Below, in pieces: positions 451 through 32,903 of a stretch of DNA of 38,407 nt. The notes beneath the pieces were generated by a model that was not told the DNA's origin, made no database searches, and worked only from the letters and a program-made list of their open reading frames with translations. The position numbers and the translations under genes were made by a program. The first letter of the stretch is position 1. The number at the start of each line of letters is the position of its first letter. The stretch is from Kiritimatiellia bacterium (GTDB lineage: Bacteria; Verrucomicrobiota; Kiritimatiellia; CAIQIC01; Lenti-01): positions 1-38,407 of the forward strand of contig JAZQOP010000231.1 in NCBI GenBank assembly GCA_045627965.1, written 5' to 3'.

Positions 451-918
451 CTACCAGCGGTAGTGGGCGAACGCCTTGTTCGCGGCGGCCATCTTGTGGG
501 TGTCGTCGCGCTTCTTGATGCAGTTGCCCTGTCCCTTGTAGGCGTCGACGATTTCGCCGGCCAGCGCCTTCTGCATGGAAGCGCCCTTGCGGCCGCGGGA
601 ATAGTCGAGAATCCAGCGCAGGGCCATCGAGGTCTGGCGGACGGCCGGGACTTCGACGGGGACCTGGTAGGTGGCGCCGCCGATACGGCGGGACTTGACC
701 TCGACCTTGGGCTTGATGTTCTCCAAGGCCTGCTGGAAGACCTGCAGGGGATCCTCGTTCGTGGCCTGCTTGATCTCGTCCAGGGCGCCGTAGACGGTGC
801 GCTGGGCGGTGGACTTCTTGCCGCACCACATGAGGATGTTGATCAGATGGGTGACGAGCTCGCTGCCATAGCGGGCGTCCGGAGCGAATTCGCGGGTTTC
901 AGCTTTGCGCCTTCTCAT
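451..918 (-). CDS. rpsG: 30S ribosomal protein S7
   Basis: 155-aa ORF with typical S7 sequence ([27 protein letters not shown]-terminus), directly after rpsL. Confidence 0.97.
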
Positions 919-930
919 GGTCCACTCCTC

Positions 931-1314
931 CTACTTCTTGGCGGCCTTCGGGCGCTTCGTCCCGTACTTGGAGCGGCCGCGGCGGCGGGATTCGATCCCG
1001 AGGCAGTCGAGCGTGCCGCGAACAATGTGGTAGCGGACGCCAGGGAGGTCCTTCACACGGCCGCCACGCACGAGCACCATCGAGTGCTCCTGCAGGTTGT
1101 GGCCTTCGCCGGGGATGTAGGCGGTGACTTCCTGGCCGTTCGTCAGACGAACACGCGCAACCTTGCGGAGGGCGGAGTTCGGCTTCTTGGGGGTCATGGT
1201 CTTGACAAGCAGGCAGACGCCGCGGCGCTGCGGACACTTTTGAAGCGCGGGCGACTTGCGCTTCGCGCGGAGCGGCGTGCGGCCGCTCTTGACCAGTTGG
1301 TTGATTGTCGGCAT
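931..1314 (-). CDS. rpsL: 30S ribosomal protein S12
   Basis: 127 aa starting MPTINQL, with [10 protein letters not shown] and [13 protein letters not shown] motifs. Confidence 0.98.
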
Positions 1315-7704: not shown

Positions 7705-9021
7705 TTACCAATGTGCAGGCGTTCTCGTGCCTGTTCCAGACAAACCGACTGAAATCATCTCCGGGGAACCATGCCTCGAAAGGCCATATACCTCGCGGTT
7801 CGGCAAGTCTTCCGCATCTTGCCGAACAATTCCGTACATGAGAAGTCGTTGTAGCAACTGAGGCTGTGTCAAGCCTGGAGCATATCCTCCATTGAGGGCT
7901 TCTCCGCACCAATCTCCCGGAAGCCAAGCTTGGCGAATGGGATCATTCGGCAAAAATATGGAAGGATTGGTTGCGGGCCATGACTTGTAAATATCTGCCA
8001 AGCCGCAGGCATGTCCCAACTCATGGGCTAATGTCCTTGCACTTGCGTTACTTGCGATCGTTAGTCCAGCGGTCACATCGTTTGGCCCCCATTGTAGTCC
8101 AACATAATGGTTACTTTGGAAGTTCTCGATGCAATACACCTCGATTCCACCGGTATGGCTAGACCAAGACTGAAGTTGCCCATATTCGAGCCAATTGTCG
8201 GATGTCGATATCTCCTGCCAATCTGTTTTGTTGGTATACAGCACATTGCCCGCCAACTGGAACTCGATGCCAGCCTGTTCCCAAACCTGGTTGGCACCGG
8301 ACAAGAGGGTTTGAAAATGCGGCACGGTAGTGGCAGGATTTTGCCCGTTGTCGTCGCGGACAATGTGCAGATAGACGGGAACTGTCTTCTTTTCCAGGAT
8401 GGTCCCGTGCAGTTTGGCGGGGGCCATCGTGCTGTCCTGCACCGTGACGGCGGCCTCCCAATCCACGGGCTGCGTTCCGGCCAATTGCACCGAGCGCCCG
8501 TTCGTGCCCCCGCCGACGAACGACATCCCGGCATTCGTGCAGTTCCAGCCGATGGCCGAATCCGGAACATTCGTCGGCAGCACGGTCGCCTGGCATGTAA
8601 ACACGTGGCCAGAACTCGCGCCCGACGGATTGACGACCAACGGCGCCCCGTTCGTGTTGACATGCTCCAGACGGATGTCCAACGGCACCCACCACCCCCT
8701 TTCGATGCGGAAGGGGTTGTCGGCGTTTCCCAGGCACACTTCGTTGGGACCTCCGTTGGGCAGGTCCGGCCAATCGTACAGGGCAAAGTGGATGCTCCCG
8801 TTCGTCAGGTCCGTCACATGCTCCGTCACGTCGAGATTAGAAAGGACCTTGGCGCCCTGCGTCCAGGCCACTTGATTGCCGTCCACCGTGATGGCGTCGT
8901 CCACCAGTCCCGACAGCGTCACCTTGTGCAAAATGGCGTTGGTCCACGGGCGGTTGCCCATGACGCCGAAAGACGCAATCAGGACGGACTGGAGTGGACG
9001 GCCACGCAGTCTGATCGCCAA
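7705..9021 (-). CDS. Metzincin-like zinc metalloprotease domain (C-terminal part of a split gene)
   Basis: HELGHACGLAD (HExxHxxGxxD) followed ~50 aa later by LLMYG (Met-turn-like). No signal peptide of its own; the true start is undefined because of the frame break with 8837-9541. Confidence 0.75.
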   Translation of the reverse strand: MAIRLRGRPLQSVLIASFGVMGNRPWTNAILHKVTLSGLVDDAITVDGNQVAWTQGAKVLSNLDVTEHVTDLTNGSIHFALYDWPDLPNGGPNEVCLGNADNPFRIERGWWVPLDIRLEHVNTNGAPLVVNPSGASSGHVFTCQATVLPTNVPDSAIGWNCTNAGMSFVGGGTNGRSVQLAGTQPVDWEAAVTVQDSTMAPAKLHGTILEKKTVPVYLHIVRDDNGQNPATTVPHFQTLLSGANQVWEQAGIEFQLAGNVLYTNKTDWQEISTSDNWLEYGQLQSWSSHTGGIEVYCIENFQSNHYVGLQWGPNDVTAGLTIASNASARTLAHELGHACGLADIYKSWPATNPSIFLPNDPIRQAWLPGDWCGEALNGGYAPGLTQPQLLQRLLMYGIVRQDAEDLPNREVYGLSRHGSPEMISVGLSGTGTRTPAHW

Positions 9022-10254: not shown

Positions 10255-11601
10255 CTAGCGGCGGCTGCGGAGGTGGCCCTTGCGGAGGAATCCGTCGTAG
10301 TGGCGCGTCACCAGGTGCGACTCGACCTGGCGCATCGTGTCGAGCATGACGCCGACGATGATGAGCAGGGACGTGCCGCCGAAGAACTGCGCAACCAAGG
10401 GCGGAATTTTCAGCATGGCATTCAGGATGATCGGCAGGACGGCGATGATCGTCAGAAAGATGGCGCCGGCCAGGGTGATGCGGGTCATGGTCTTGTCCAG
10501 AAACTCCGCGGTGGGCTTGCCGGGGCGGATGCCCGGGACGTAGCCGCCGTACTTCTTGAGGTCGTCCGCGATCTGGACGGGGTGGAACTGCGTGGCCACC
10601 CAGAAGTAGGAGAAGAACAGGATCATGAGCCCGTAGACCGTGATGTAGAAGAACGACGCCTCGCGCACCAGGTGGGTCTGGGCGAACGCCTTCGTGGCGG
10701 GAATCCATTCCAGGACCTTGCCGATGAACATCAAGATCGCCGAGGCGAAGATGATGGGCATGACGCCGGAGTAGTTCACGCGCAGCGGCATGTACGTGCT
10801 CTGCCCGCCGTAGGTCTTGCGGCCGACGACGCGCTTGGCGTACTGGACCGGTATCTTCCGCTGTGCCTGCGTCACCGCGACCACCCCGGCAATGACCAGG
10901 AAGGCCAGCACGACGATGACCACCAGCTTGAAGATGTTGGCGTCGCCCGTGCGGAACATCGCGACCGTCTGCTCGATGGCGCCCGGAAGGCGGCTCACGA
11001 TGCTGACGGTGATGATCAGGGAGATGCCGTTGCCGATTCCGCGGGCCGTGATCTGCTCGCCGAACCACATCAGCAGCATCGTGCCCGTGGTCATCGCCAT
11101 CACGCCGAGCAGCAGGAACGGAACCCGGTCCAGCAGGACGATCCGCTCCCCTTCCATCGCCTGGAGGCCGAGGGCCCCCGGGTTCAGCAGGGCGGCCGCG
11201 AAGCCAATGCCCTGCACAAGGCAGAGGAAGACAGTCAGATAGCGTCCGTACTGGATGATCTTCTGGCGGCCGCTGTCGCCTTCGCGGGCCAGCCGCTCCA
11301 GCGAGGGAATGACCGCCGTCATCAGCTGCAGGATGATGGAGGCGCTGATGCTGGGCATGATGCCGAGGGCGCCGACGGCGGCCGCCGTCAACGCACCCCC
11401 GCTGAACAGGTCCAGCAGACCCAGGAAGCCCACGCCACCGTTCTGCGTCATGCGGTCGACGATGCCCTGGAGGGCGACGACATCCACGCCGGGCAGCGGG
11501 ATCACCGCCAGCATACGGCAGAGGAACAGCATGGCGCACGTGAAGAAGATGCGCTGGCGAAGCTCCGGGATCTTGAGCGAATTGGAAAAGGCGGAAAGCA
11601 T
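10255..11601 (-). CDS. secY: Preprotein translocase subunit SecY
   Basis: 448 aa, multi-pass membrane protein with typical SecY sequence, positioned after rplO. Confidence 0.97.
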   Translation of the reverse strand: MLSAFSNSLKIPELRQRIFFTCAMLFLCRMLAVIPLPGVDVVALQGIVDRMTQNGGVGFLGLLDLFSGGALTAAAVGALGIMPSISASIILQLMTAVIPSLERLAREGDSGRQKIIQYGRYLTVFLCLVQGIGFAAALLNPGALGLQAMEGERIVLLDRVPFLLLGVMAMTTGTMLLMWFGEQITARGIGNGISLIITVSIVSRLPGAIEQTVAMFRTGDANIFKLVVIVVLAFLVIAGVVAVTQAQRKIPVQYAKRVVGRKTYGGQSTYMPLRVNYSGVMPIIFASAILMFIGKVLEWIPATKAFAQTHLVREASFFYITVYGLMILFFSYFWVATQFHPVQIADDLKKYGGYVPGIRPGKPTAEFLDKTMTRITLAGAIFLTIIAVLPIILNAMLKIPPLVAQFFGGTSLLIIVGVMLDTMRQVESHLVTRHYDGFLRKGHLRSRR

Positions 11602-13939: not shown

Positions 13940-14125
13940 CTACCAACTGGCTTTCACCACGCCGGGGATCTTGCCTTCGGAGGCGAGCTCGCGGAAGCAG
14001 ATGCGGCACAGCTGGAACTTGCGGATGTAGGCGCGGGAACGGCCGCACCGACGGCAGCGACGATAGGAACGGACGCCGAACTTCGGGTCGCGCTCCGCCT
14101 TCTTAATCCAAGAAATCTTGGCCAT
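13940..14125 (-). CDS. rpsZ: 30S ribosomal protein S14, zinc-binding type Z
   Basis: 61 aa with CRRCGR ... CRICFRE (two CxxC pairs), ends KASW. Confidence 0.95.
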
Positions 14126-16928: not shown

Positions 16929-17291
16929 TTACTTCTTCGACGGCTTTTCGGTCGTCAGGGTCACGCTGATGTGGCTCGTCTTCTTGCGGATCGACGCGGC
17001 GGAACCGCGCGCCCGGGGCCAGTACCTGGGGAAGGTCGGGCCGTTGTCGACCGTCGCCGACGCCACATACAGGTCGTCGGCCGACAGCTCGGCGTTGTTC
17101 TCTGCGTTCGCGACGGCGGACTTCAGCGTCTTGCCGATGCACTCGGCCGCCTTGCGCTTGTTCAGCTCGACGACGCGAAGGGCCTCGGCCACGCTCAGGC
17201 CCGTGATGGCCCTGGCGAGGTCGCGCGCCTTCATCGGCGAGAGGCGGACGAACTTGGTCGTCGCCTTGAGGTTTTTGCTTTCGCTTTCCAT
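16929..17291 (-). CDS. rplV: 50S ribosomal protein L22
   Basis: 120 aa; FVRLSPMKARDLARAI and VDNGPTFPRYWPRARG. Its GGAAGG SD lies inside the last codons of the upstream ORF. Confidence 0.96.
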   Translation of the reverse strand: MESESKNLKATTKFVRLSPMKARDLARAITGLSVAEALRVVELNKRKAAECIGKTLKSAVANAENNAELSADDLYVASATVDNGPTFPRYWPRARGSAASIRKKTSHISVTLTTEKPSKK

Positions 17292-17292
17292 G

Positions 17293-18075
17293 TCATTTTC
17301 CTTCCGTACCGGTCGACCGGGCGAGGACCGCCCGGTCCCCGGCCTGGGGCCCGTCCCCGTCCGCGACCTTTTCGATGATCGCGCCGGAGACCGTCTCTCT
17401 CACATCGACAACCCGGAGGCTGGCCACCTTGCGACGGCCCCGCAGAACGACGAGCGGGAGGCCGTAGCACACGCCGTGGCGCGCCCCTTGGTCGACGACC
17501 GCCAGGCCCAGGTCCTCGTTGACGTCCAGGACGCGGCCCTCGACGGGCCGGTCCGTGGACGCCGCCTCGGCGGGGGCGGGCATCCCGGTTGCCGCGTGGG
17601 CGTCCAGGGCCGCCATCGCTTCCGCGAGGCGCCGTCCCATCCGTTCCAGCCTGGCGTCCTTCCGTGCCGCCTCCTCGCGGAGGGCGGCCACCTCGGAGCC
17701 AAGCCGGGTCGCGGCGGAGCGAGCCTCGCCGGCCAGCAATTCCAGCAGATCGTCCGAGCCTTCCGTCATGTTTCCGCGGGGGGGGCGATGTCCGCCCGCG
17801 GCGCCCGGGTCCGAGGTGTCCTCCACCTCTTCCGTTCGCGCGGACTGCACCGTTCTCGCGGTCGTCTCCGCCTTCTCCGGGACCGCCGTGTGGGCCTTTT
17901 CGGGCCCGTTTTCCACTGATTCCGGGAGGGAATACGTCGGCATGATGGCCGGCTGTTCCGTAATCAAATCACTTTTCCATCGCCAACGCAAGCCAAAAAA
18001 TACGCCTGCGCCGGCGGTCGCTCCGAGGAGCAGGGCCAGGGCGATGGGCCAGGCCCTGCCGTCGGAGCGGTGCAC
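17293..18075 (-). CDS. Hypothetical membrane-anchored coiled-coil protein inserted between rpsS and rplV
   Basis: GAGGA-N6-GTG start 19 nt after the rpsS stop; TGA stop 1 nt before the rplV ATG. Third codon positions are strongly G/C-rich in this frame. Predicted parts: TM helix (WPIALALLLGATAGAGVFFGL), acidic/Pro-rich linker, Ala/Arg/Glu-rich helix, ~75-aa beta-rich C-terminal domain. Confidence 0.8.
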   Translation of the reverse strand: MHRSDGRAWPIALALLLGATAGAGVFFGLRWRWKSDLITEQPAIMPTYSLPESVENGPEKAHTAVPEKAETTARTVQSARTEEVEDTSDPGAAGGHRPPRGNMTEGSDDLLELLAGEARSAATRLGSEVAALREEAARKDARLERMGRRLAEAMAALDAHAATGMPAPAEAASTDRPVEGRVLDVNEDLGLAVVDQGARHGVCYGLPLVVLRGRRKVASLRVVDVRETVSGAIIEKVADGDGPQAGDRAVLARSTGTEGK

Positions 18076-18094
18076 CGTGCGTCCTCGGCAGCGA

Positions 18095-18379
18095 CTACTT
18101 GAGGGCGACGGTCTTGTCCGTAGCCGCGCCGTGGTGGCGGAAGGTACGGGTGGGGGCGAACTCGCCCAGGCGGTGGCCGACCATGTTTTCCGTGACGAAA
18201 ACGTTGGTGAAGACCTTGCCGTTGTGGACGTTGAAGGTGTGGCCCACGAACTCGGGCAGGACCATGCTGCGGCGCGACCAGGTCTTGATCGGCAGCTTCT
18301 TCCCGCTCTTGTTCATCGCGTCGACCTTCTTCATCAGGTGGTCTTCGACGTACGGGCCCTTCTTGATGGAACGACTCAT
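18095..18379 (-). CDS. rpsS: 30S ribosomal protein S19
   Basis: 94 aa; [38 protein letters not shown]. Confidence 0.98.
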
Positions 18380-20789: not shown

Positions 20790-21095
20790 CTACAGACGGA
20801 TCTGGATGTCGACGCCGGCCGGCAGGTTGAGCTTCTTGAGCTCGTCCACCGTCTTGGCAGTCGGGTCAATGATGTCGATGATCCGCTTGTGCGTGCGGAT
20901 CTCGAACTGTTCCATGGACTTCTTGTCCGCGTGAACGCTGCGGTTCACGGTGTACCGTTCGATGCGGGTGGGCATCGGGATGGGCCCGGCCACCTGGGCG
21001 CTGGTACGCTTCGCGGTATCGACGATGTCCTGGGCCGACTGGTCCAGCATCCGATGGTCGAATGCCCGAAGGCGAATTCTGATGCGTTGTTTCAT
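20790..21095 (-). CDS. rpsJ: 30S ribosomal protein S10
   Basis: Start at internal ATG 21095; 101 aa [20 protein letters not shown]... Confidence 0.96.
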
Positions 21096-21132
21096 GCGTA
21101 TTTCTTTCGGTTCGACAATGATCCTTGGCGAT

Positions 21133-21159
21133 GGCCGGGCGGCTCTCCCGCCGCCGGCC
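21133..21159 (-). promoter_or_regulatory. Stable stem-loop in the S10 operon leader
   Basis: Minus strand GGCCGGCGGC-GGGAGA-GCCG(C)CCGGCC, 38-64 nt upstream of the rpsJ ATG; no U-tract follows. Confidence 0.3.
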
Positions 21160-21248
21160 TGCACGCCAATGCGCCCTTGTGTCAAAGAACGCCCGACTCC
21201 ACGGCCGCGCCAGCCTACAGGACGGCCGCAACCGCAAAATCGGCGCGT

Positions 21249-21276
21249 ATTCAAGCACATTTTGTCCGAAAGTCAA
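21249..21276 (-). promoter_or_regulatory. Candidate sigma70 promoter of the S10 operon
   Basis: Minus strand TTGACT-N16-TTGAAT with TGc extended -10, preceded by the A/T-rich GAGAAATTTTTGCGATTTTTGCGG; would give a ~150-nt leader. Confidence 0.4.
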
Positions 21277-21428
21277 CCCCTTTCCGCAAAAATCGCAAAA
21301 ATTTCTCGCCCTCGCCGGAAAAAGTGGTAGTTTTAGGTCCACGGACGCCGTCGGGCGTCCTGAAGTAAGTAGACGATGATGCTCCCCCTTCGAACAGCCC
21401 CCATGACGGACAGGAAGGAAGCCTAGCG

Positions 21429-22859
21429 ATGGTCTTCAACTCGCTGGTCTTCCTTGTGTTCTTTGCGATCGTCTACGTGGCGTACCGTCTGCTGCCGCAT
21501 CGCGGGCAGAACGTGCTGATCCTCGTATCGAGCTACATCTTCTACGGCTGGTGGGACTGGCGGTTCTGCGGGCTGATCGCCTTGACGAGCCTCTGCTCCT
21601 GGGGCAGCGGCCTTGCCATCGGGCATTTCCGGCGGAGAGGGGCGTCCAGGGCCGCCTGGTGGTCCTGCGCGGCGAACGTCGGGCTGAACCTCGGCATCCT
21701 CGGCGTCTTCAAGTACTACGACTTCTTCGCCTCCAGCGCAGCCGCGGCGGCCGCCGCCCTGGGCTGGACGGCGGATGTCCCGCTCCTCCGCGTCATCCTG
21801 CCGGTCGGGATCAGCTTCTACACGTTCCAGGCGCTGAGCTACACGCTGGATGTCCACCGTGGCCAGATGCGGCCCACGCGGAACGCGGTCGACTTCTGCG
21901 CGTTTGTCGCCTTCTTTCCCCAGCTGGTCGCCGGCCCCATCGAACGCGCCAGCAACCTGCTGCCGCAGATCGAGAACCCGCGGACCGTCACGCCGGAAGG
22001 GACCCGGGAAGGGATTTGGCTCGTCGCGTGGGGCCTTTTCAAGAAGTGCGTCATCGCGGACAACCTGGCCGTCCTGGTCGACGGCGTGTTCAACGGCGGC
22101 GGCACGGCGACGGCGGGCGGGGCGGCCTGCCTGCTGGCGGTCTATGCGTTCGCCTTTCAGATCTACTGCGACTTTTCGGGCTACAGCGACATCGCCCGCG
22201 GCCTGGCCAAAATGATGGGCGTCGACCTGATGCTCAACTTCAACAACCCCTATTTCGCCCTCAATCCGAAGGACTTCTGGGCGCGCTGGCACATCAGCCT
22301 CTCGACGTGGCTCCGCGACTACCTCTACATTCCGCTCGGCGGCAACCGGCGCGGCGCGGCGCGCAAATACGCCAACCTCTTTCTCACGATGCTGCTGGGC
22401 GGGCTGTGGCACGGGGCGGCCTGGACATTCGTCGCCTGGGGCGCGTTCCATGGCGCCCTGCTCGTCGCCTACCATGCCTGGACGTCGTGGATGGGCTTCG
22501 GCAAGGGGCGCGTGGATTCGGGCCGGTGCGTCTGGCTGCGCCGGATCGCCATGTTCAACCTGGCCTGCGTCGGATGGCTCTTCTTCCGCGCCGAAACGAT
22601 TGCGCAGGCCTGGTCGATGCTGGGCGCGATCTTCGGCCGCTGGGCCTGGGATGCGCAGGCAGCGAACATCCTGTGCGCGACCATCCTCTTCGCCGCGCCC
22701 CTGTGGGCCGTGCAGGCCCTGCAGGTCGCCAGCGGGCGCCTGGATGCGCCGCGGCGCCTTTCGCCGGTTCCCAGAATCGCCCTTTGGATCGTCATGGCCG
22801 TCGGATTCCTTCTGTTCGGGAACACGGGCGGCGGGGCCTTCATCTATTTCCAGTTCTGA
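21429..22859 (+). CDS. MBOAT family membrane-bound O-acyltransferase (AlgI/PatA/DltB-like)
   Basis: 476 aa, polytopic; MVFNSLVFLVFF N-terminus, SFYTFQALSY, DFWARWHISLSTWLRDYLYIPLGGNR and LLGGLWHG (conserved His) motifs. Confidence 0.9.
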   Translation: MVFNSLVFLVFFAIVYVAYRLLPHRGQNVLILVSSYIFYGWWDWRFCGLIALTSLCSWGSGLAIGHFRRRGASRAAWWSCAANVGLNLGILGVFKYYDFFASSAAAAAAALGWTADVPLLRVILPVGISFYTFQALSYTLDVHRGQMRPTRNAVDFCAFVAFFPQLVAGPIERASNLLPQIENPRTVTPEGTREGIWLVAWGLFKKCVIADNLAVLVDGVFNGGGTATAGGAACLLAVYAFAFQIYCDFSGYSDIARGLAKMMGVDLMLNFNNPYFALNPKDFWARWHISLSTWLRDYLYIPLGGNRRGAARKYANLFLTMLLGGLWHGAAWTFVAWGAFHGALLVAYHAWTSWMGFGKGRVDSGRCVWLRRIAMFNLACVGWLFFRAETIAQAWSMLGAIFGRWAWDAQAANILCATILFAAPLWAVQALQVASGRLDAPRRLSPVPRIALWIVMAVGFLLFGNTGGGAFIYFQF

Positions 22860-30218: not shown

Positions 30219-31484
30219 ATGCGTCGCATCCTTTTCCGAAGTTTCCTGTTCTGCCTCGTCGCCGCCCTGCTCATCGGGGCGTTCTATGCGTGGCGCGCCT
30301 ACGACGCCTGCCGCACGGCGATAGGCGGCTACAAGCACCTGCGCTACCTGCTCGAATCGGGCGAGACGCTCGAAGGCGAACCGGCCGACGAAGTGCTCTC
30401 CGACGACTACCTGATGAGCCTGTTCGGGAACAACCCCGAGCTGGTCGAGCGGCTGAAGTCGATCGTCGACCTGGGAATGGCCACCGACGAATCGCTGAAG
30501 ACGGGCGAAGTCACGGCAATGATCGTCACCTACCAGAAGGTCGAAGGCGAAATCCGCGACGCGGCGATCTACGTGCTGGGCGGGTTCTCCGACCCGAAGC
30601 ATTCGCGCATGGGCTTCCACACGTCCGGCTACTTCCAGCAGGAGCTCGACCCCGGCCTGTGGCTGACGGGCACCACCGTCATGAACCTGTTCGGCCGCGA
30701 CATCGTCGTGTTCTGCGAGAAGGAGAAGGCCGAGCAGCACATGGCGCTGCTCTACGACCTGCTCAACGGCGGGATCATGCCGCTGGCCTCGAAGATCATC
30801 GACTCGCCGCTGCACTACTCGATCGTCATCCCCTCGCCCAAGCAGATCGCTCCGCCCAACCTGCGCAACCACCTGCAGACCGTCTTCATCACGGGAACGA
30901 TGGAACCGGACCAGTCGGAGACCGAGATCCGCTTCATCACGGGCAACCCCCTGAAGGCCTCGCACGTCCACTCCATCCTCAAGGACATGCTGTCCATGGC
31001 GCGCATGACGTTTCACGACCGCTTCAGCGGCTATGTCAAGAAGCGCTCCTGGGGCACGCAGGACGACATGTGGTGGGCGACGGAATACGTCTCGCTGATC
31101 GACAGCTCGAAGCTGGTGCTCTCGCCCGACATGGTCAGCCTGCGCTTCCGCTACGACCGGGCGCAGAACAACGCCGTGCTCAAGACCATCGAGCGCGCCG
31201 GCCGCGACCTGGCCGCGCAGCGGGCCTTCGCGATCGCCGGCGAGCTACCGTGGGAGTTCGTCTATGCCCAGAAGGACAACGACTCGGGCGCCTACTGGTC
31301 GAAGGAGCACCTCGACGGCCCCGAATGGCCCCTGGGCGAGGAAGGCCTCCCGACGCCCGGCTCCATCGCCGCCAAGGCCGAGCGCGAACGCCTGGCCGCC
31401 GAAAAGGCCGCCGAAAAGGAGCGCCAGCGCCAGGAGAAGGAAGAAAAGGCCCGCCAGGCCGCCCAGCCCGGACAGGAGGCCTGA
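30219..31484 (+). CDS. Hypothetical membrane-anchored protein with a charged Lys/Glu-rich tail
   Basis: 421 aa; N-terminal TM (FLFCLVAALLIGAFYAW); I recognise no family motif; C-terminus AERERLAAEKAAEKERQRQEKEEKARQ. Confidence 0.75.
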   Translation: MRRILFRSFLFCLVAALLIGAFYAWRAYDACRTAIGGYKHLRYLLESGETLEGEPADEVLSDDYLMSLFGNNPELVERLKSIVDLGMATDESLKTGEVTAMIVTYQKVEGEIRDAAIYVLGGFSDPKHSRMGFHTSGYFQQELDPGLWLTGTTVMNLFGRDIVVFCEKEKAEQHMALLYDLLNGGIMPLASKIIDSPLHYSIVIPSPKQIAPPNLRNHLQTVFITGTMEPDQSETEIRFITGNPLKASHVHSILKDMLSMARMTFHDRFSGYVKKRSWGTQDDMWWATEYVSLIDSSKLVLSPDMVSLRFRYDRAQNNAVLKTIERAGRDLAAQRAFAIAGELPWEFVYAQKDNDSGAYWSKEHLDGPEWPLGEEGLPTPGSIAAKAERERLAAEKAAEKERQRQEKEEKARQAAQPGQEA

Positions 31485-31487
31485 TCC

Positions 31488-32903
31488 ATGGACCGCCGCC
31501 GCCTTTCCGCCCTTGCCCTCGCGGGCCTCCTGGCGCTGCCGCTGGCCGCCCTGGCCCGTCCGTTCGACGTCCGCGTCCTGTCCGCCACCAACGTCTACCA
31601 GCTGGCTCCGGTCGTCGCCGACTCGGGCCTCATCGCCTGGATCCAGCGGAGCAAGCTGGGCGACGACGGCGACGACGGAGCCCAGTCGCGCACCGACGTG
31701 CTGGTTTCCGACAACGGCGCCGAGCCGGTCAACATCACGAAGGACGACCCGGCGCTGGCCGGGCGCATGTCCACGCCGTCGGTCTGCGGGCAGGCCGTCG
31801 CCTTTTCCGTGCAGATCGTCCCCGGGAACCCGGGCGGCCCCGAATTCAAGCTGGTCCTGCCCGAGCTCGACGAAAAGATGCAGCAGATGGAGGACGACTA
31901 CCCGACGCTCTTCGGCGAGACGCCGCCCTCTTCGGCGACCATCGCGCAGATCGACGCCGACACGCCCGAGGCGGCCGCCATCCCCGAGGGGGCCGCCGAC
32001 GCGGAGCCGGAGCTCGACGAGAACGGCGAGCCCATCGTGAAGCCCATTGCCGCCCCGCCGCGCCAGAACTGGCGCGCCGGCATGGGCAACAGCCTGTCCA
32101 TCGCCCTCTACGAAAACGGCCAAATCGAGTTCCTGACGCCGACGAACCAAGGCTTTTCCATCCCGGCGCTGGGCGAGAAGCACGTCGCCTGCCTTTGCGC
32201 GCGCGGCTGGCCCTACGGCTACGAGATGGTCACCTACGACCGCGAGCAGAAGGCCCTCACGCAGCTGACGACCAACTTCTTCTACGTCGCCTGCCCCGTC
32301 ATGTCGGGCCACCGCCTCGCCTTCCAGGGGTGGGACGGCAACGACTACGAAATCTTCGTCCACGACTTCGACACGGGCGTCACCACGCAGATCACCGACA
32401 ACACCTTCGACGACACCGACCCCGCCCTGGACGGCGACACCCTCGGCTGGATCGGCCACCCCCTCGTCACCGCCGAAATCTTCATGTACGACTTCGAGTC
32501 CCAGTCCGTCCGCAAGCTCTCGGACTCCTCGACGACGGCCAACACGCACCTTTCGGTCTGGGACGGGAAGGCCGTCTGGCAGGCCTACGACGACGAGGGC
32601 GCCGACTCCGAAATCTACTACTACGACGGCAAGCGCATCATCAAGCTGACGTCCAACATCTGGGACGACACCGACCCGTGCATCCGCGACGGCGTCATCG
32701 CCTGGGTGTCCTACGTGGACCTCGGCGACGCCGAAATCATGGCCCTCGACCTTTCCGACAACATCCCCGTCCAGATCACCGACAACGCCTCCGACGACCT
32801 CCACCCGTGCACCGCGCGCTCCATGGTCGTCTGGCAGTCCGACACCGACGACGGGCATTCCCTGATCTGCATCGCCACGCCCCACGTCGACGGCAAGCCC
32901 TAG
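31488..32903 (+). CDS. Secreted repeat protein, probable beta-propeller
   Basis: 471 aa; signal peptide MDRRRLSALALAGLLALPLAALA. At least 4 repeats of the pattern EI..YD....(I/L)T.N..DD..P......(I/V).W in the C-terminal half. Confidence 0.8.
   Translation: MDRRRLSALALAGLLALPLAALARPFDVRVLSATNVYQLAPVVADSGLIAWIQRSKLGDDGDDGAQSRTDVLVSDNGAEPVNITKDDPALAGRMSTPSVCGQAVAFSVQIVPGNPGGPEFKLVLPELDEKMQQMEDDYPTLFGETPPSSATIAQIDADTPEAAAIPEGAADAEPELDENGEPIVKPIAAPPRQNWRAGMGNSLSIALYENGQIEFLTPTNQGFSIPALGEKHVACLCARGWPYGYEMVTYDREQKALTQLTTNFFYVACPVMSGHRLAFQGWDGNDYEIFVHDFDTGVTTQITDNTFDDTDPALDGDTLGWIGHPLVTAEIFMYDFESQSVRKLSDSSTTANTHLSVWDGKAVWQAYDDEGADSEIYYYDGKRIIKLTSNIWDDTDPCIRDGVIAWVSYVDLGDAEIMALDLSDNIPVQITDNASDDLHPCTARSMVVWQSDTDDGHSLICIATPHVDGKP

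Follow-up and report, generated by a model that had tools for sequence, protein, structure and literature searches.

A predicted periplasmic coiled-coil and beta-barrel protein family encoded between rpsS and rplV in the S10 operon of Kiritimatiellia and Verrucomicrobiae

Introduction

Few gene orders are as well conserved among bacteria as that of the S10 operon, in which the junction between rpsS and rplV is normally uninterrupted. The present work concerns an exception to this stable order, found in a stretch of 38,407 nucleotides (nt) from a Kiritimatiellia bacterium (contig JAZQOP010000231.1), the whole of which is referred to below as the window. Here an open reading frame (ORF) of 260 amino acids (aa), which we call X, fills the space between the two ribosomal protein genes.

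The described proteins that come closest to X in layout or fold are MreC, FlgT and TsaP. MreC has been reported to be present in verrucomicrobia generally (PMC5147048), while FlgT and TsaP form rings around outer-membrane machines (bioRxiv 10.1101/2020.05.29.123786). In addition, the barrels of FlgT, of the F1-beta N-terminus and of periplasmic adaptor proteins (PAPs) have already been linked with one another in a review (PMC4446572).

Searches of the literature on S10-operon inserts in Verrucomicrobia and the Planctomycetes-Verrucomicrobia-Chlamydiae (PVC) group, and on PVC signature proteins, gave no description of the X insert, and a search on transposon sequencing in Akkermansia yielded nothing useful for X. 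The family lacks annotation, and its constant position within the S10 operon appears not to have been described. We report that X is best explained as a true housekeeping gene, encoding a member of a protein family not named before.

Results

X is a conserved protein-coding gene

A search of 5.8 billion proteins returned 26 homologues of X, sharing 36-99% identity with it, none of which is named or has a Pfam domain. Among 1.84 billion cluster representatives (50% clustering), searching with a profile gave 2,401 proteins at E<=1e-3 (452 at E<=1e-10), and a profile of the Verrucomicrobiae type gave 4,328 proteins at E<=1e-5. The names listed for this last set all read 'hypothetical protein', except for one automated IMG label of 'MreC' (P0298). 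There is, then, a gap in the databases, where thousands of X-family proteins are only 'hypothetical' and are covered by neither a Pfam nor an NCBIfam model.

In the alignment of homologues, the N-terminus is variable, the helix is conserved and the C-terminal ~75 residues, which are predicted to form a beta-barrel, are strongly conserved. The invariant barrel residues include G197, G201, G205, R212, D224, V225, R226, G231, A232, G246, D247 and R248; the barrel motifs read VVDVRE and GDR, and the invariant positions persist down to about 25% overall identity.

Selection was assessed from the ratio of nonsynonymous to synonymous substitution rates (dN/dS), calculated pairwise by the Nei-Gojobori method. 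For Verrucomicrobiae pairs the ratio for X is 0.08-0.22, close to the rplV values for those pairs. The Kiritimatiellia ratio is about 0.5 over the whole gene, and varies by region: 0.65-0.97 in the N-terminal part (anchor and linker), 0.17-0.52 in the coil and 0.16-0.39 in the barrel. Selection on X thus acts at the protein level, chiefly on the C-terminal half. It is this conservation, together with the low dN/dS, that establishes X as coding. The original prediction had drawn support for coding from the G/C-rich third codon positions, and that argument is weak. The G+C fraction at third positions (GC3) is 0.83 in X, as compared with 0.90-0.95 in the flanking ribosomal genes, and an antisense ORF of 316 aa that overlaps rplV and X (16969-17919, plus strand) has an equal GC3 of 0.84; GC3 is therefore no proof of coding here. 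Long GC3-rich shadow ORFs are common in sequence of 67.5% GC.

X is fixed at the rpsS-rplV junction across two classes

Surveyed in relatives, X proves to be not a local oddity but a fixed feature across Kiritimatiellia and Verrucomicrobiae. Wherever the sequence continues past X (101 loci), the next gene on the same strand is rplV; the two are a median of 9 nt apart, and no more than 15 nt apart in 65 of these loci. Directly 5' of X, tblastn placed rpsS in 84 loci (median gap 15 nt), and X lies between the two in close homologues and in distant ones (L001, L004). A GTDB scan with one genome per species gave 16 loci, 15 of them with an X homologue between rpsS and rplV; the sixteenth (L018) begins inside X, so that rplV alone is visible downstream. 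The 16 loci, all from metagenome-assembled genomes (MAGs), are labelled Kiritimatiellia, Verrucomicrobia, Verrucomicrobiae, 'PVC group' or unclassified 'bacterium'. A metagenome scan with the barrel motif added 80 further loci of the same arrangement, and four additional family members from the search of representatives are likewise at the rpsS-rplV junction. Ribosomal protein L2 from these loci is 53-83% identical to that of the window, which makes the phylogenetic span a deep one; by the same protein, the window groups with Kiritimatiellia MAGs (80-83% identity).

Two departures from the common arrangement are informative. First, in a sub-clade comprising L002/L003 (1438-2741) and L030 (1733-3141), the operon is split exactly between rpsS and X, with an opposite-strand gene upstream (MTHFR in one case, an ORF resembling PtsN and helix-turn-helix proteins in the other). 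There, X is the first gene of the rplV-rpsC-... unit, from which it follows that X travels with rplV and not with rpsS. Second, in many loci of soil Verrucomicrobiae (L011-L019, L083, L086, L088, L092, L099 and similar loci, one of which bears the NCBI label Chthoniobacterales), X and rplV are separated by 90-127 nt instead of 0-15 nt, so that translational coupling between them is not universal. A spacer of this length may contain an additional element.

Outside the clade, rpsS (Plim_0481) and rplV (Plim_0482) of Planctopirus limnophila are consecutive and the insert is absent (PMC12283558 supplement). Taking the phylum Verrucomicrobiota in the broad GTDB sense, the distribution is best explained if X became fixed between rpsS and rplV in the common ancestor of Kiritimatiellia and Verrucomicrobiae. 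The insert is a clean genomic synapomorphy of these two classes.

The sole relative found away from rplV is P0167, a distant protein of 381 aa with two tandem barrels from Omnitrophota (L109 1968-10755). Its gene sits in a cluster that reads lgt, rluD-like, P0167, a 254-aa hypothetical, murA-like (EPSP_synthase family), mreB, mreC, mreD-like, PBP2 (a penicillin-binding protein, PBP) and rodA. The mreD-like gene has no Pfam hit, and the canonical mreC lies 3.5 kb from P0167. This neighbourhood links the wider X family to cell-wall genes.

X is predicted to be co-transcribed with the ribosomal genes

On the minus strand of the window, an unbroken S10-spc ribosomal cluster extends from rpsJ (near 21.1 kb) as far as secY (10.3 kb). 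The features of the X locus are collected in Table 1; reading the DNA confirmed the coordinates and junction details first given for the 260-aa ORF, which appears in the ORF listing with a GTG start and a TGA stop. The TAG of rpsS is followed by 19 nt, TCGCTGCCGAGGACGCACG, and then by the GTG of X, with GAGGA ending 6 nt 5' of the start codon. The 3' end of X reads GAA GGA AAA TGA C ATG, the TGA (17293-17295) being 1 nt from the ATG of rplV, a spacing also seen in L021-L026. The identity of the upstream neighbour is also borne out in relatives, where precomputed Pfam annotation places Ribosomal_S19 at the equivalent position (L001, L021, L025 and others).

Table 1 Features of the X locus (positions in the window)
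Feature	Position	Strand	Basis
rpsS (ribosomal protein S19), upstream neighbour of X	18095..18379	-	translation; tblastn at related loci
rpsS-X spacer, 19 nt, with Shine-Dalgarno-like GAGGA	18076..18094	-	read from DNA
X, exported coiled-coil and beta-barrel protein, unnamed family	17293..18075	-	homologues, profile searches, purifying selection
Hydrophobic signal anchor WPIALALLLGATAGAGVFFGL, residues 9-29 of X	17989..18051	-	AlphaFold2 helix 8-39
Disordered acidic/Pro-rich linker, residues 30-103	17767..17988	-	pLDDT 32-45; fast-evolving
Coiled-coil stalk, residues 108-162	17590..17754	-	AlphaFold2 helix, heptad periodicity, dN/dS
Six-stranded beta-barrel, residues 179-252	17320..17541	-	domain model, Foldseek, invariant columns, dN/dS
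rplV Shine-Dalgarno GGAAGGA, within the final X codons	17299..17305	-	read from DNA
rplV (ribosomal protein L22), invariable downstream partner of X	16929..17291	-	translation; synteny

On the coding (minus) strand, no terminator-like or promoter-like site was seen around X. Scanning the window for Rfam families and tRNAs found none, so the spacer holds no RNA feature that might explain it. With a common strand, gaps of 19 and 1 nt and no intervening site, the gene layout is that of a member of the S10 operon. X is thus predicted to be co-transcribed with the operon, and the stop/start spacing fits both co-transcription and coupling to rplV, in agreement with what had been proposed from the sequence at the outset.

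X shows a four-part architecture with family-wide export signals

The division of X into anchor, linker, helix and beta domain, proposed in the original prediction, was borne out by AlphaFold2. Modelled from the family alignment, the protein begins with a helix (residues 8-39) having a hydrophobic core at 9-29, followed by a low-confidence region (40-100), a single long helix (104-162; predicted local distance difference test, pLDDT, 96-98) and a six-stranded beta domain (179-251; pLDDT 93-96).

Among the 170 family members with a length of 140 aa or more, 148 have an N-terminal hydrophobic segment, and those without one mostly look like truncated gene calls. The type of anchor is not conserved. 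Thus, X of the window has a signal anchor; many of the 170 members have cleavable signal peptides of the AxA type (...VLA-EE, ...ARA-QA, ...VDA-AD), and 31 have a lipobox-like motif. In variants anchored by a transmembrane (TM) helix, positive charge is usually greater on the N-terminal flank, and this fits an N-in/C-out orientation. The coil and barrel of X are accordingly predicted to be periplasmic.

The coil has a family-wide hydrophobic periodicity, with heptad a-positions at 136/143/150/157 and d-positions at 132/139/146/153. At a further a-position, 129, 14 of 20 members have Asn, and the window X has Val. Asn at an a-position specifies parallel dimers in model coiled coils, and the coil of X is probably a parallel dimer.

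Two short motifs stand out from the variable N-terminal half. Residues 68-80 of X (KAETTARTVQSAR; 17836-17874, minus strand) lie inside the disordered, almost neutral linker, and the pattern KAETAxxxVQSAR is nearly invariant in Kiritimatiellia homologues and missing from those of Verrucomicrobiae; it may serve for binding or as a processing site. The other is a juxtamembrane motif, '[R/G/S]-S-L-[K/T/M/N]', found 5-10 residues past the TM helix of TM-anchored variants (e.g. P0005-P0172). It occurs in 42 of 148 members, as compared with 4% of background windows, and its form in the window is KSDLIT (17959-17976, minus strand).

X resembles MreC and FlgT and belongs to neither family

Searches of Pfam, NCBIfam and PDB sequences with the window X gave noise only (HupF/HypC at E 0.22; TIGR03165 at E 0.096). 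A PDB profile search with the full-length family was dominated by the coil and returned coiled-coil noise (bZIP, BST2); hence, the barrel was searched alone, giving TsaP as the best match (E 0.013) and a MexC-like adaptor as the second (E 0.12). A model of the barrel only reached a pLDDT of 87 and a predicted template modelling score (pTM) of 0.76. In Foldseek, its best matches were to FlgT (8z5n, query-normalised TM-score, TMq, 0.67, E 9e-4; 3w1e, TMq 0.66), followed by the N-terminal barrels of F1/V1-ATPase subunits (TMq 0.6-0.65); the full-length model also matches the MreC model 9a5z_B. The check on the C-terminal domain thus returned a six-stranded barrel with matches of the FlgT and F1 types.

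Curated family models were matched at scores below their thresholds. Pfam FlgT_C (PF16538) is matched by 7 of 22 members, at best with 20.9 bits (E 5e-4), short of the gathering score of 27, and has no match in the window X itself; the predicted barrel is superposable on the FlgT C-domain. NCBIfam MreC models match 9 of 22 members with 13-21 bits against cut-offs of 243-505, and each of these matches runs co-linearly through the coil into the first part of the barrel. Pfam MreC matches one relative (P0100; E 0.033, 14.4 bits against a threshold of 28), and neither PF04085 nor the NCBIfam model PRK13922 matches the window X at E<=10. When the X family was aligned by hhalign with an alignment built from 24 canonical MreC proteins, the probability was 91% (E 1e-6) over 81 columns spanning the coil and barrel start, with 32% for the barrel alone; the alignment pairs the E-N motifs of the coils and the turns 'IDKGxxDGI' and 'LDxGxRxGVRxG'.

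MreC has an N-terminal anchor followed by a periplasmic coiled coil, and the AlphaFold2 model, the heptads and the hhalign result all predict the same for X. MreC also has two tandem barrels, which make up its PBP2-binding core, and a place in an mreB-mreC(-mreD) cluster. X has a single barrel followed by 8 residues, and adjoins rplV in every locus. X is therefore an MreC/FlgT-C-type barrel on an MreC-like stalk, and belongs to neither curated family, given its single barrel, its scores below threshold and its different genomic location. The initial view that no family could be assigned holds, since no curated threshold was reached. The resemblance to MreC suggested with it is weak but recurring; that to RodZ was not seen.

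X is probably translated less than its neighbours

The codon adaptation index (CAI) was computed against the 18 ribosomal genes of the window for 28 in-frame genes. X scored 0.47, the lowest of the 28; the ribosomal genes scored 0.62-0.84 and nine other genes 0.51-0.81. Arginine is encoded in X by nine CGC and nine CGG codons, as compared with 194 CGC and nine CGG in the ribosomal genes. The low CAI, together with the GTG start, suggests that X shares a transcript with its neighbours but is translated less than they are, and makes production in stoichiometric amounts with ribosomal proteins, as at first supposed, unlikely.

A positional counterpart is called essential in Verrucomicrobium spinosum

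In a study of V. spinosum by transposon-directed insertion-site sequencing (PMC12283558 supplement), VSP_RS22560 lies between rplV (VSP_RS22555) and rpsS (VSP_RS22565). Its insertion index of 0.00127389 classed it as essential, the values for rpsS and rplV being 0.0108 and 0.0154. The index equals 1/785, giving a gene length of about 785 nt, and VSP_RS22560 is the positional counterpart and a putative homologue of X. The same organism has a canonical, essential mreC beside mreB (VSP_RS17760). The strong synteny, the purifying selection and the essential call of the positional counterpart together make it likely that X is important.

Other features of the window

The GC content between 7000 and 10000 falls to 0.56-0.61, as compared with about 0.68 overall, and the ORFs there have no firm Pfam hit; one of them (7705-9021, minus strand) has a weak Reprolysin_3 match. 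The genes adk, map, infA, rpmJ and rpsM normally come after secY, and the spc-alpha cluster is apparently interrupted directly downstream of secY, possibly by foreign DNA. Ahead of the S10 operon there is no str operon or tuf; upstream of rpsJ (region 20790-22859) lies a divergent MBOAT acyltransferase gene (21429-22859, plus strand), and rpsL-rpsG are found about 20 kb off (451-1314, minus strand) with rpsT adjacent (1465-1794). The rpsN gene (13940-14125, minus strand) encodes a short 61-aa form with two CxxC pairs (RCRRCGR...LCRIC), of the zinc-ribbon S14 type. Two adjacent ORFs of 421 and 471 aa (30219-32903, plus strand) have no Pfam hit at 1e-5; their CAI values of 0.77 and 0.81 are on par with those of ribosomal proteins, and they may be highly expressed proteins.

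Discussion

Building on the reality of the gene, its conservation, synteny and fold, and the family-wide export signals, we infer a dimeric state, a periplasmic partner, an envelope role and a coupling to growth rate. Thus, we propose that X is a phylum-specific, MreC-like dimeric scaffold that acts in the periplasm on an envelope machine and is wired into the S10 operon, a reading that we consider somewhat more likely than not. X would be transcribed within the S10 operon and have its own GAGGA/GTG start, from which it would be translated at a rate below that of the adjacent ribosomal genes, and in the window's lineage the TGA-C-ATG junction would couple rplV translation to it. The protein would be exported, by an N-in/C-out signal anchor here and by a cleaved signal peptide or a lipoprotein anchor in relatives. 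Its periplasmic part would comprise a flexible linker, a coiled coil of ~55 residues (probably a parallel dimer) and one six-stranded barrel, through which the dimer might dock onto a cell-envelope machine, much as MreC does on PBP2 and TsaP/FlgT on outer-membrane rings. The likely target would be a peptidoglycan-synthesis or outer-membrane complex, and residence in the ribosomal operon would tie the supply of X to growth rate. In this way X may link ribosome synthesis to the envelope, as suggested in the original prediction.

A role in peptidoglycan synthesis is suggested by the resemblance to MreC and by the neighbourhood of the Omnitrophota relative. Among cultured members of the clade, many are cocci or ovoids whose wall is Gram-negative and contains peptidoglycan (PMC5148204), and so the role of X would not be restricted to the maintenance of rod shape. 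Many, moreover, are non-motile cocci (PMC5148204), which excludes a flagellar role in those members.

Several points weigh against the scaffold we propose. The anchor type varies, making a fixed role as an inner-membrane tether unlikely, and the dimer is deduced from a conserved Asn that Val replaces in the window X. Every family match of X falls below curated thresholds, and the hhalign score for MreC leans on the coiled coil. Codon usage is a weak guide to expression for a single short gene. As for V. spinosum, the homology of VSP_RS22560 is by position and length only, and its essential call could reflect polarity on rplV and genes further downstream.

A bolder form of this proposal, which we consider unlikely, would have the scaffold essential throughout the phylum, with the capacity for envelope growth set directly by the output of the ribosomal operon. 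If true, X would be a built-in coupler of ribosome production and envelope growth rate, a task done by regulation in other bacteria, and its hard-wiring into the operon would have lasted hundreds of millions of years. In a related scenario, X would be exported co-translationally, and the S10 mRNA would thereby be tethered to the membrane.

The resemblance to MreC raises the question of whether X might be a divergent MreC, that is, the elongasome scaffold itself, binding and activating the class-B PBP of the Rod complex. The layout of anchor, coiled coil and beta-barrel is the same, and the NCBIfam matches in 9 of 22 members, the Pfam match in P0100, the hhalign probability, the Foldseek match to 9a5z_B and the automated name of P0298 all point in that direction. 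However, the NCBIfam scores are a small fraction of their cut-offs, there is one barrel rather than two, many members have a cleaved signal peptide or lipobox in place of a TM anchor, and in more than 100 loci sampled X was never seen beside mreB. Canonical MreC, moreover, occurs alongside the positional counterpart in V. spinosum and the distant relative in Omnitrophota, and is reported from verrucomicrobia generally (PMC5147048). We therefore find this quite unlikely. The stronger version, in which X replaces MreC as the only one, is rejected on account of this coexistence.

An S10 location would be readily explained if X were a very abundant structural envelope protein that braces or spaces the periplasm, similar to Braun's lipoprotein (Lpp), and made at levels like those of ribosomal proteins. 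Such a brace would accord with an exported coiled coil bearing a terminal domain, with the existence of lipobox variants and with a mid-operon gene tightly spaced to both neighbours. It accords poorly with the lowest CAI of the scored genes, the even use of CGC and CGG and the GTG start; the anchor type differs between clades, and domain searches of X and relatives detected no module for peptidoglycan binding or outer-membrane insertion. We regard it as decidedly unlikely, the low CAI in particular speaking against hyper-abundance.

The constant company of rplV, which persists when the operon breaks, and the essential call in V. spinosum could also be accounted for by a membrane-tethered protein that faces the cytoplasm and binds ribosomes, or S19/L22, with a direct role in translation or assembly. 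This is most improbable. Most members have a cleavable signal peptide or lipobox, which would put the coil and barrel outside the cytoplasm, the charges of the TM variants favour N-in/C-out, the fold matches periplasmic modules (FlgT, TsaP, MreC), and family searches with the window X found no RNA-binding or ribosome-binding domain; on the strength of the signal peptides found family-wide, a cytoplasmic ribosome-binding role is rejected. Equally improbable is a nearly functionless protein whose ORF is kept as a cis-acting spacer, with rplV translation locked to coupling: the rplV Shine-Dalgarno inside X at the TGA-C-ATG junction, the short gap in 65 of 101 loci and the almost neutral N-terminal part would suit it, but purifying selection clearly acts on the coil and barrel, whose invariant residues are kept across distant homologues, and many Verrucomicrobiae retain X, at a dN/dS of about 0.1, across gaps of 90-127 nt that make coupling impossible.

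Bacteria of these classes, the Akkermansia and Kiritimatiella lineages among them, abound in soil, gut and ocean, and their envelope biology is poorly understood. An unannotated scaffold resembling MreC and FlgT could therefore reveal a new component of envelope biogenesis, and X offers a natural test case for the coupling of envelope growth to ribosome production, with clear experimental handles in V. spinosum.

In comparison with known systems, the placement of X is closest to that of secY (with adk, map and infA) in the spc operon. These are likewise non-ribosomal genes within ribosomal operons, and secY (10255-11601 in the window) is, as X, related to membranes and secretion. A membrane protein expressed in stoichiometric context with ribosomal proteins was originally held to be unusual; a membrane protein gene among ribosomal genes has a precedent in the same window. 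The difference is that secY is universal, functionally tied to translation and located in the end region of its operon, whereas X is lineage-specific and sits in the middle of S10.

At the protein level, X shares with MreC the anchor, the coiled coil with its E-N motif and a six-stranded barrel that opens with a '(I/L)D.G..(D)G(I/V)..G' turn. Unlike MreC, it has one barrel instead of two, the rest of which does not align, many of its members are soluble periplasmic proteins or lipoproteins, and its genes are always adjacent to rplV and never to mreB/mreD. The C-terminal domain of FlgT (PF16538; 3w1e, 8z5n) is the best structural match of the barrel, and the FlgT-like CI/CII domains of TsaP (3jc8) are its best sequence-profile match in the PDB. 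The barrels of FlgT and TsaP, and by prediction that of X, are periplasmic docking barrels for protein-protein contacts; X, however, lacks the LysM of TsaP and the N and M domains of FlgT, and has a coiled-coil stalk in addition. The N-terminal barrel of F1/V1-ATPase alpha/beta subunits has the same six-stranded topology (root-mean-square deviation 2.7-3.1 Å over 75-80 residues). For these and for the barrels of periplasmic adaptors (MFP/PAP), the resemblance is one of fold only (12-22% identity) and the cellular context differs; X has neither the ATPase domain of the former nor the lipoyl or hairpin domains of the latter. The building blocks of X are thus of known kinds.

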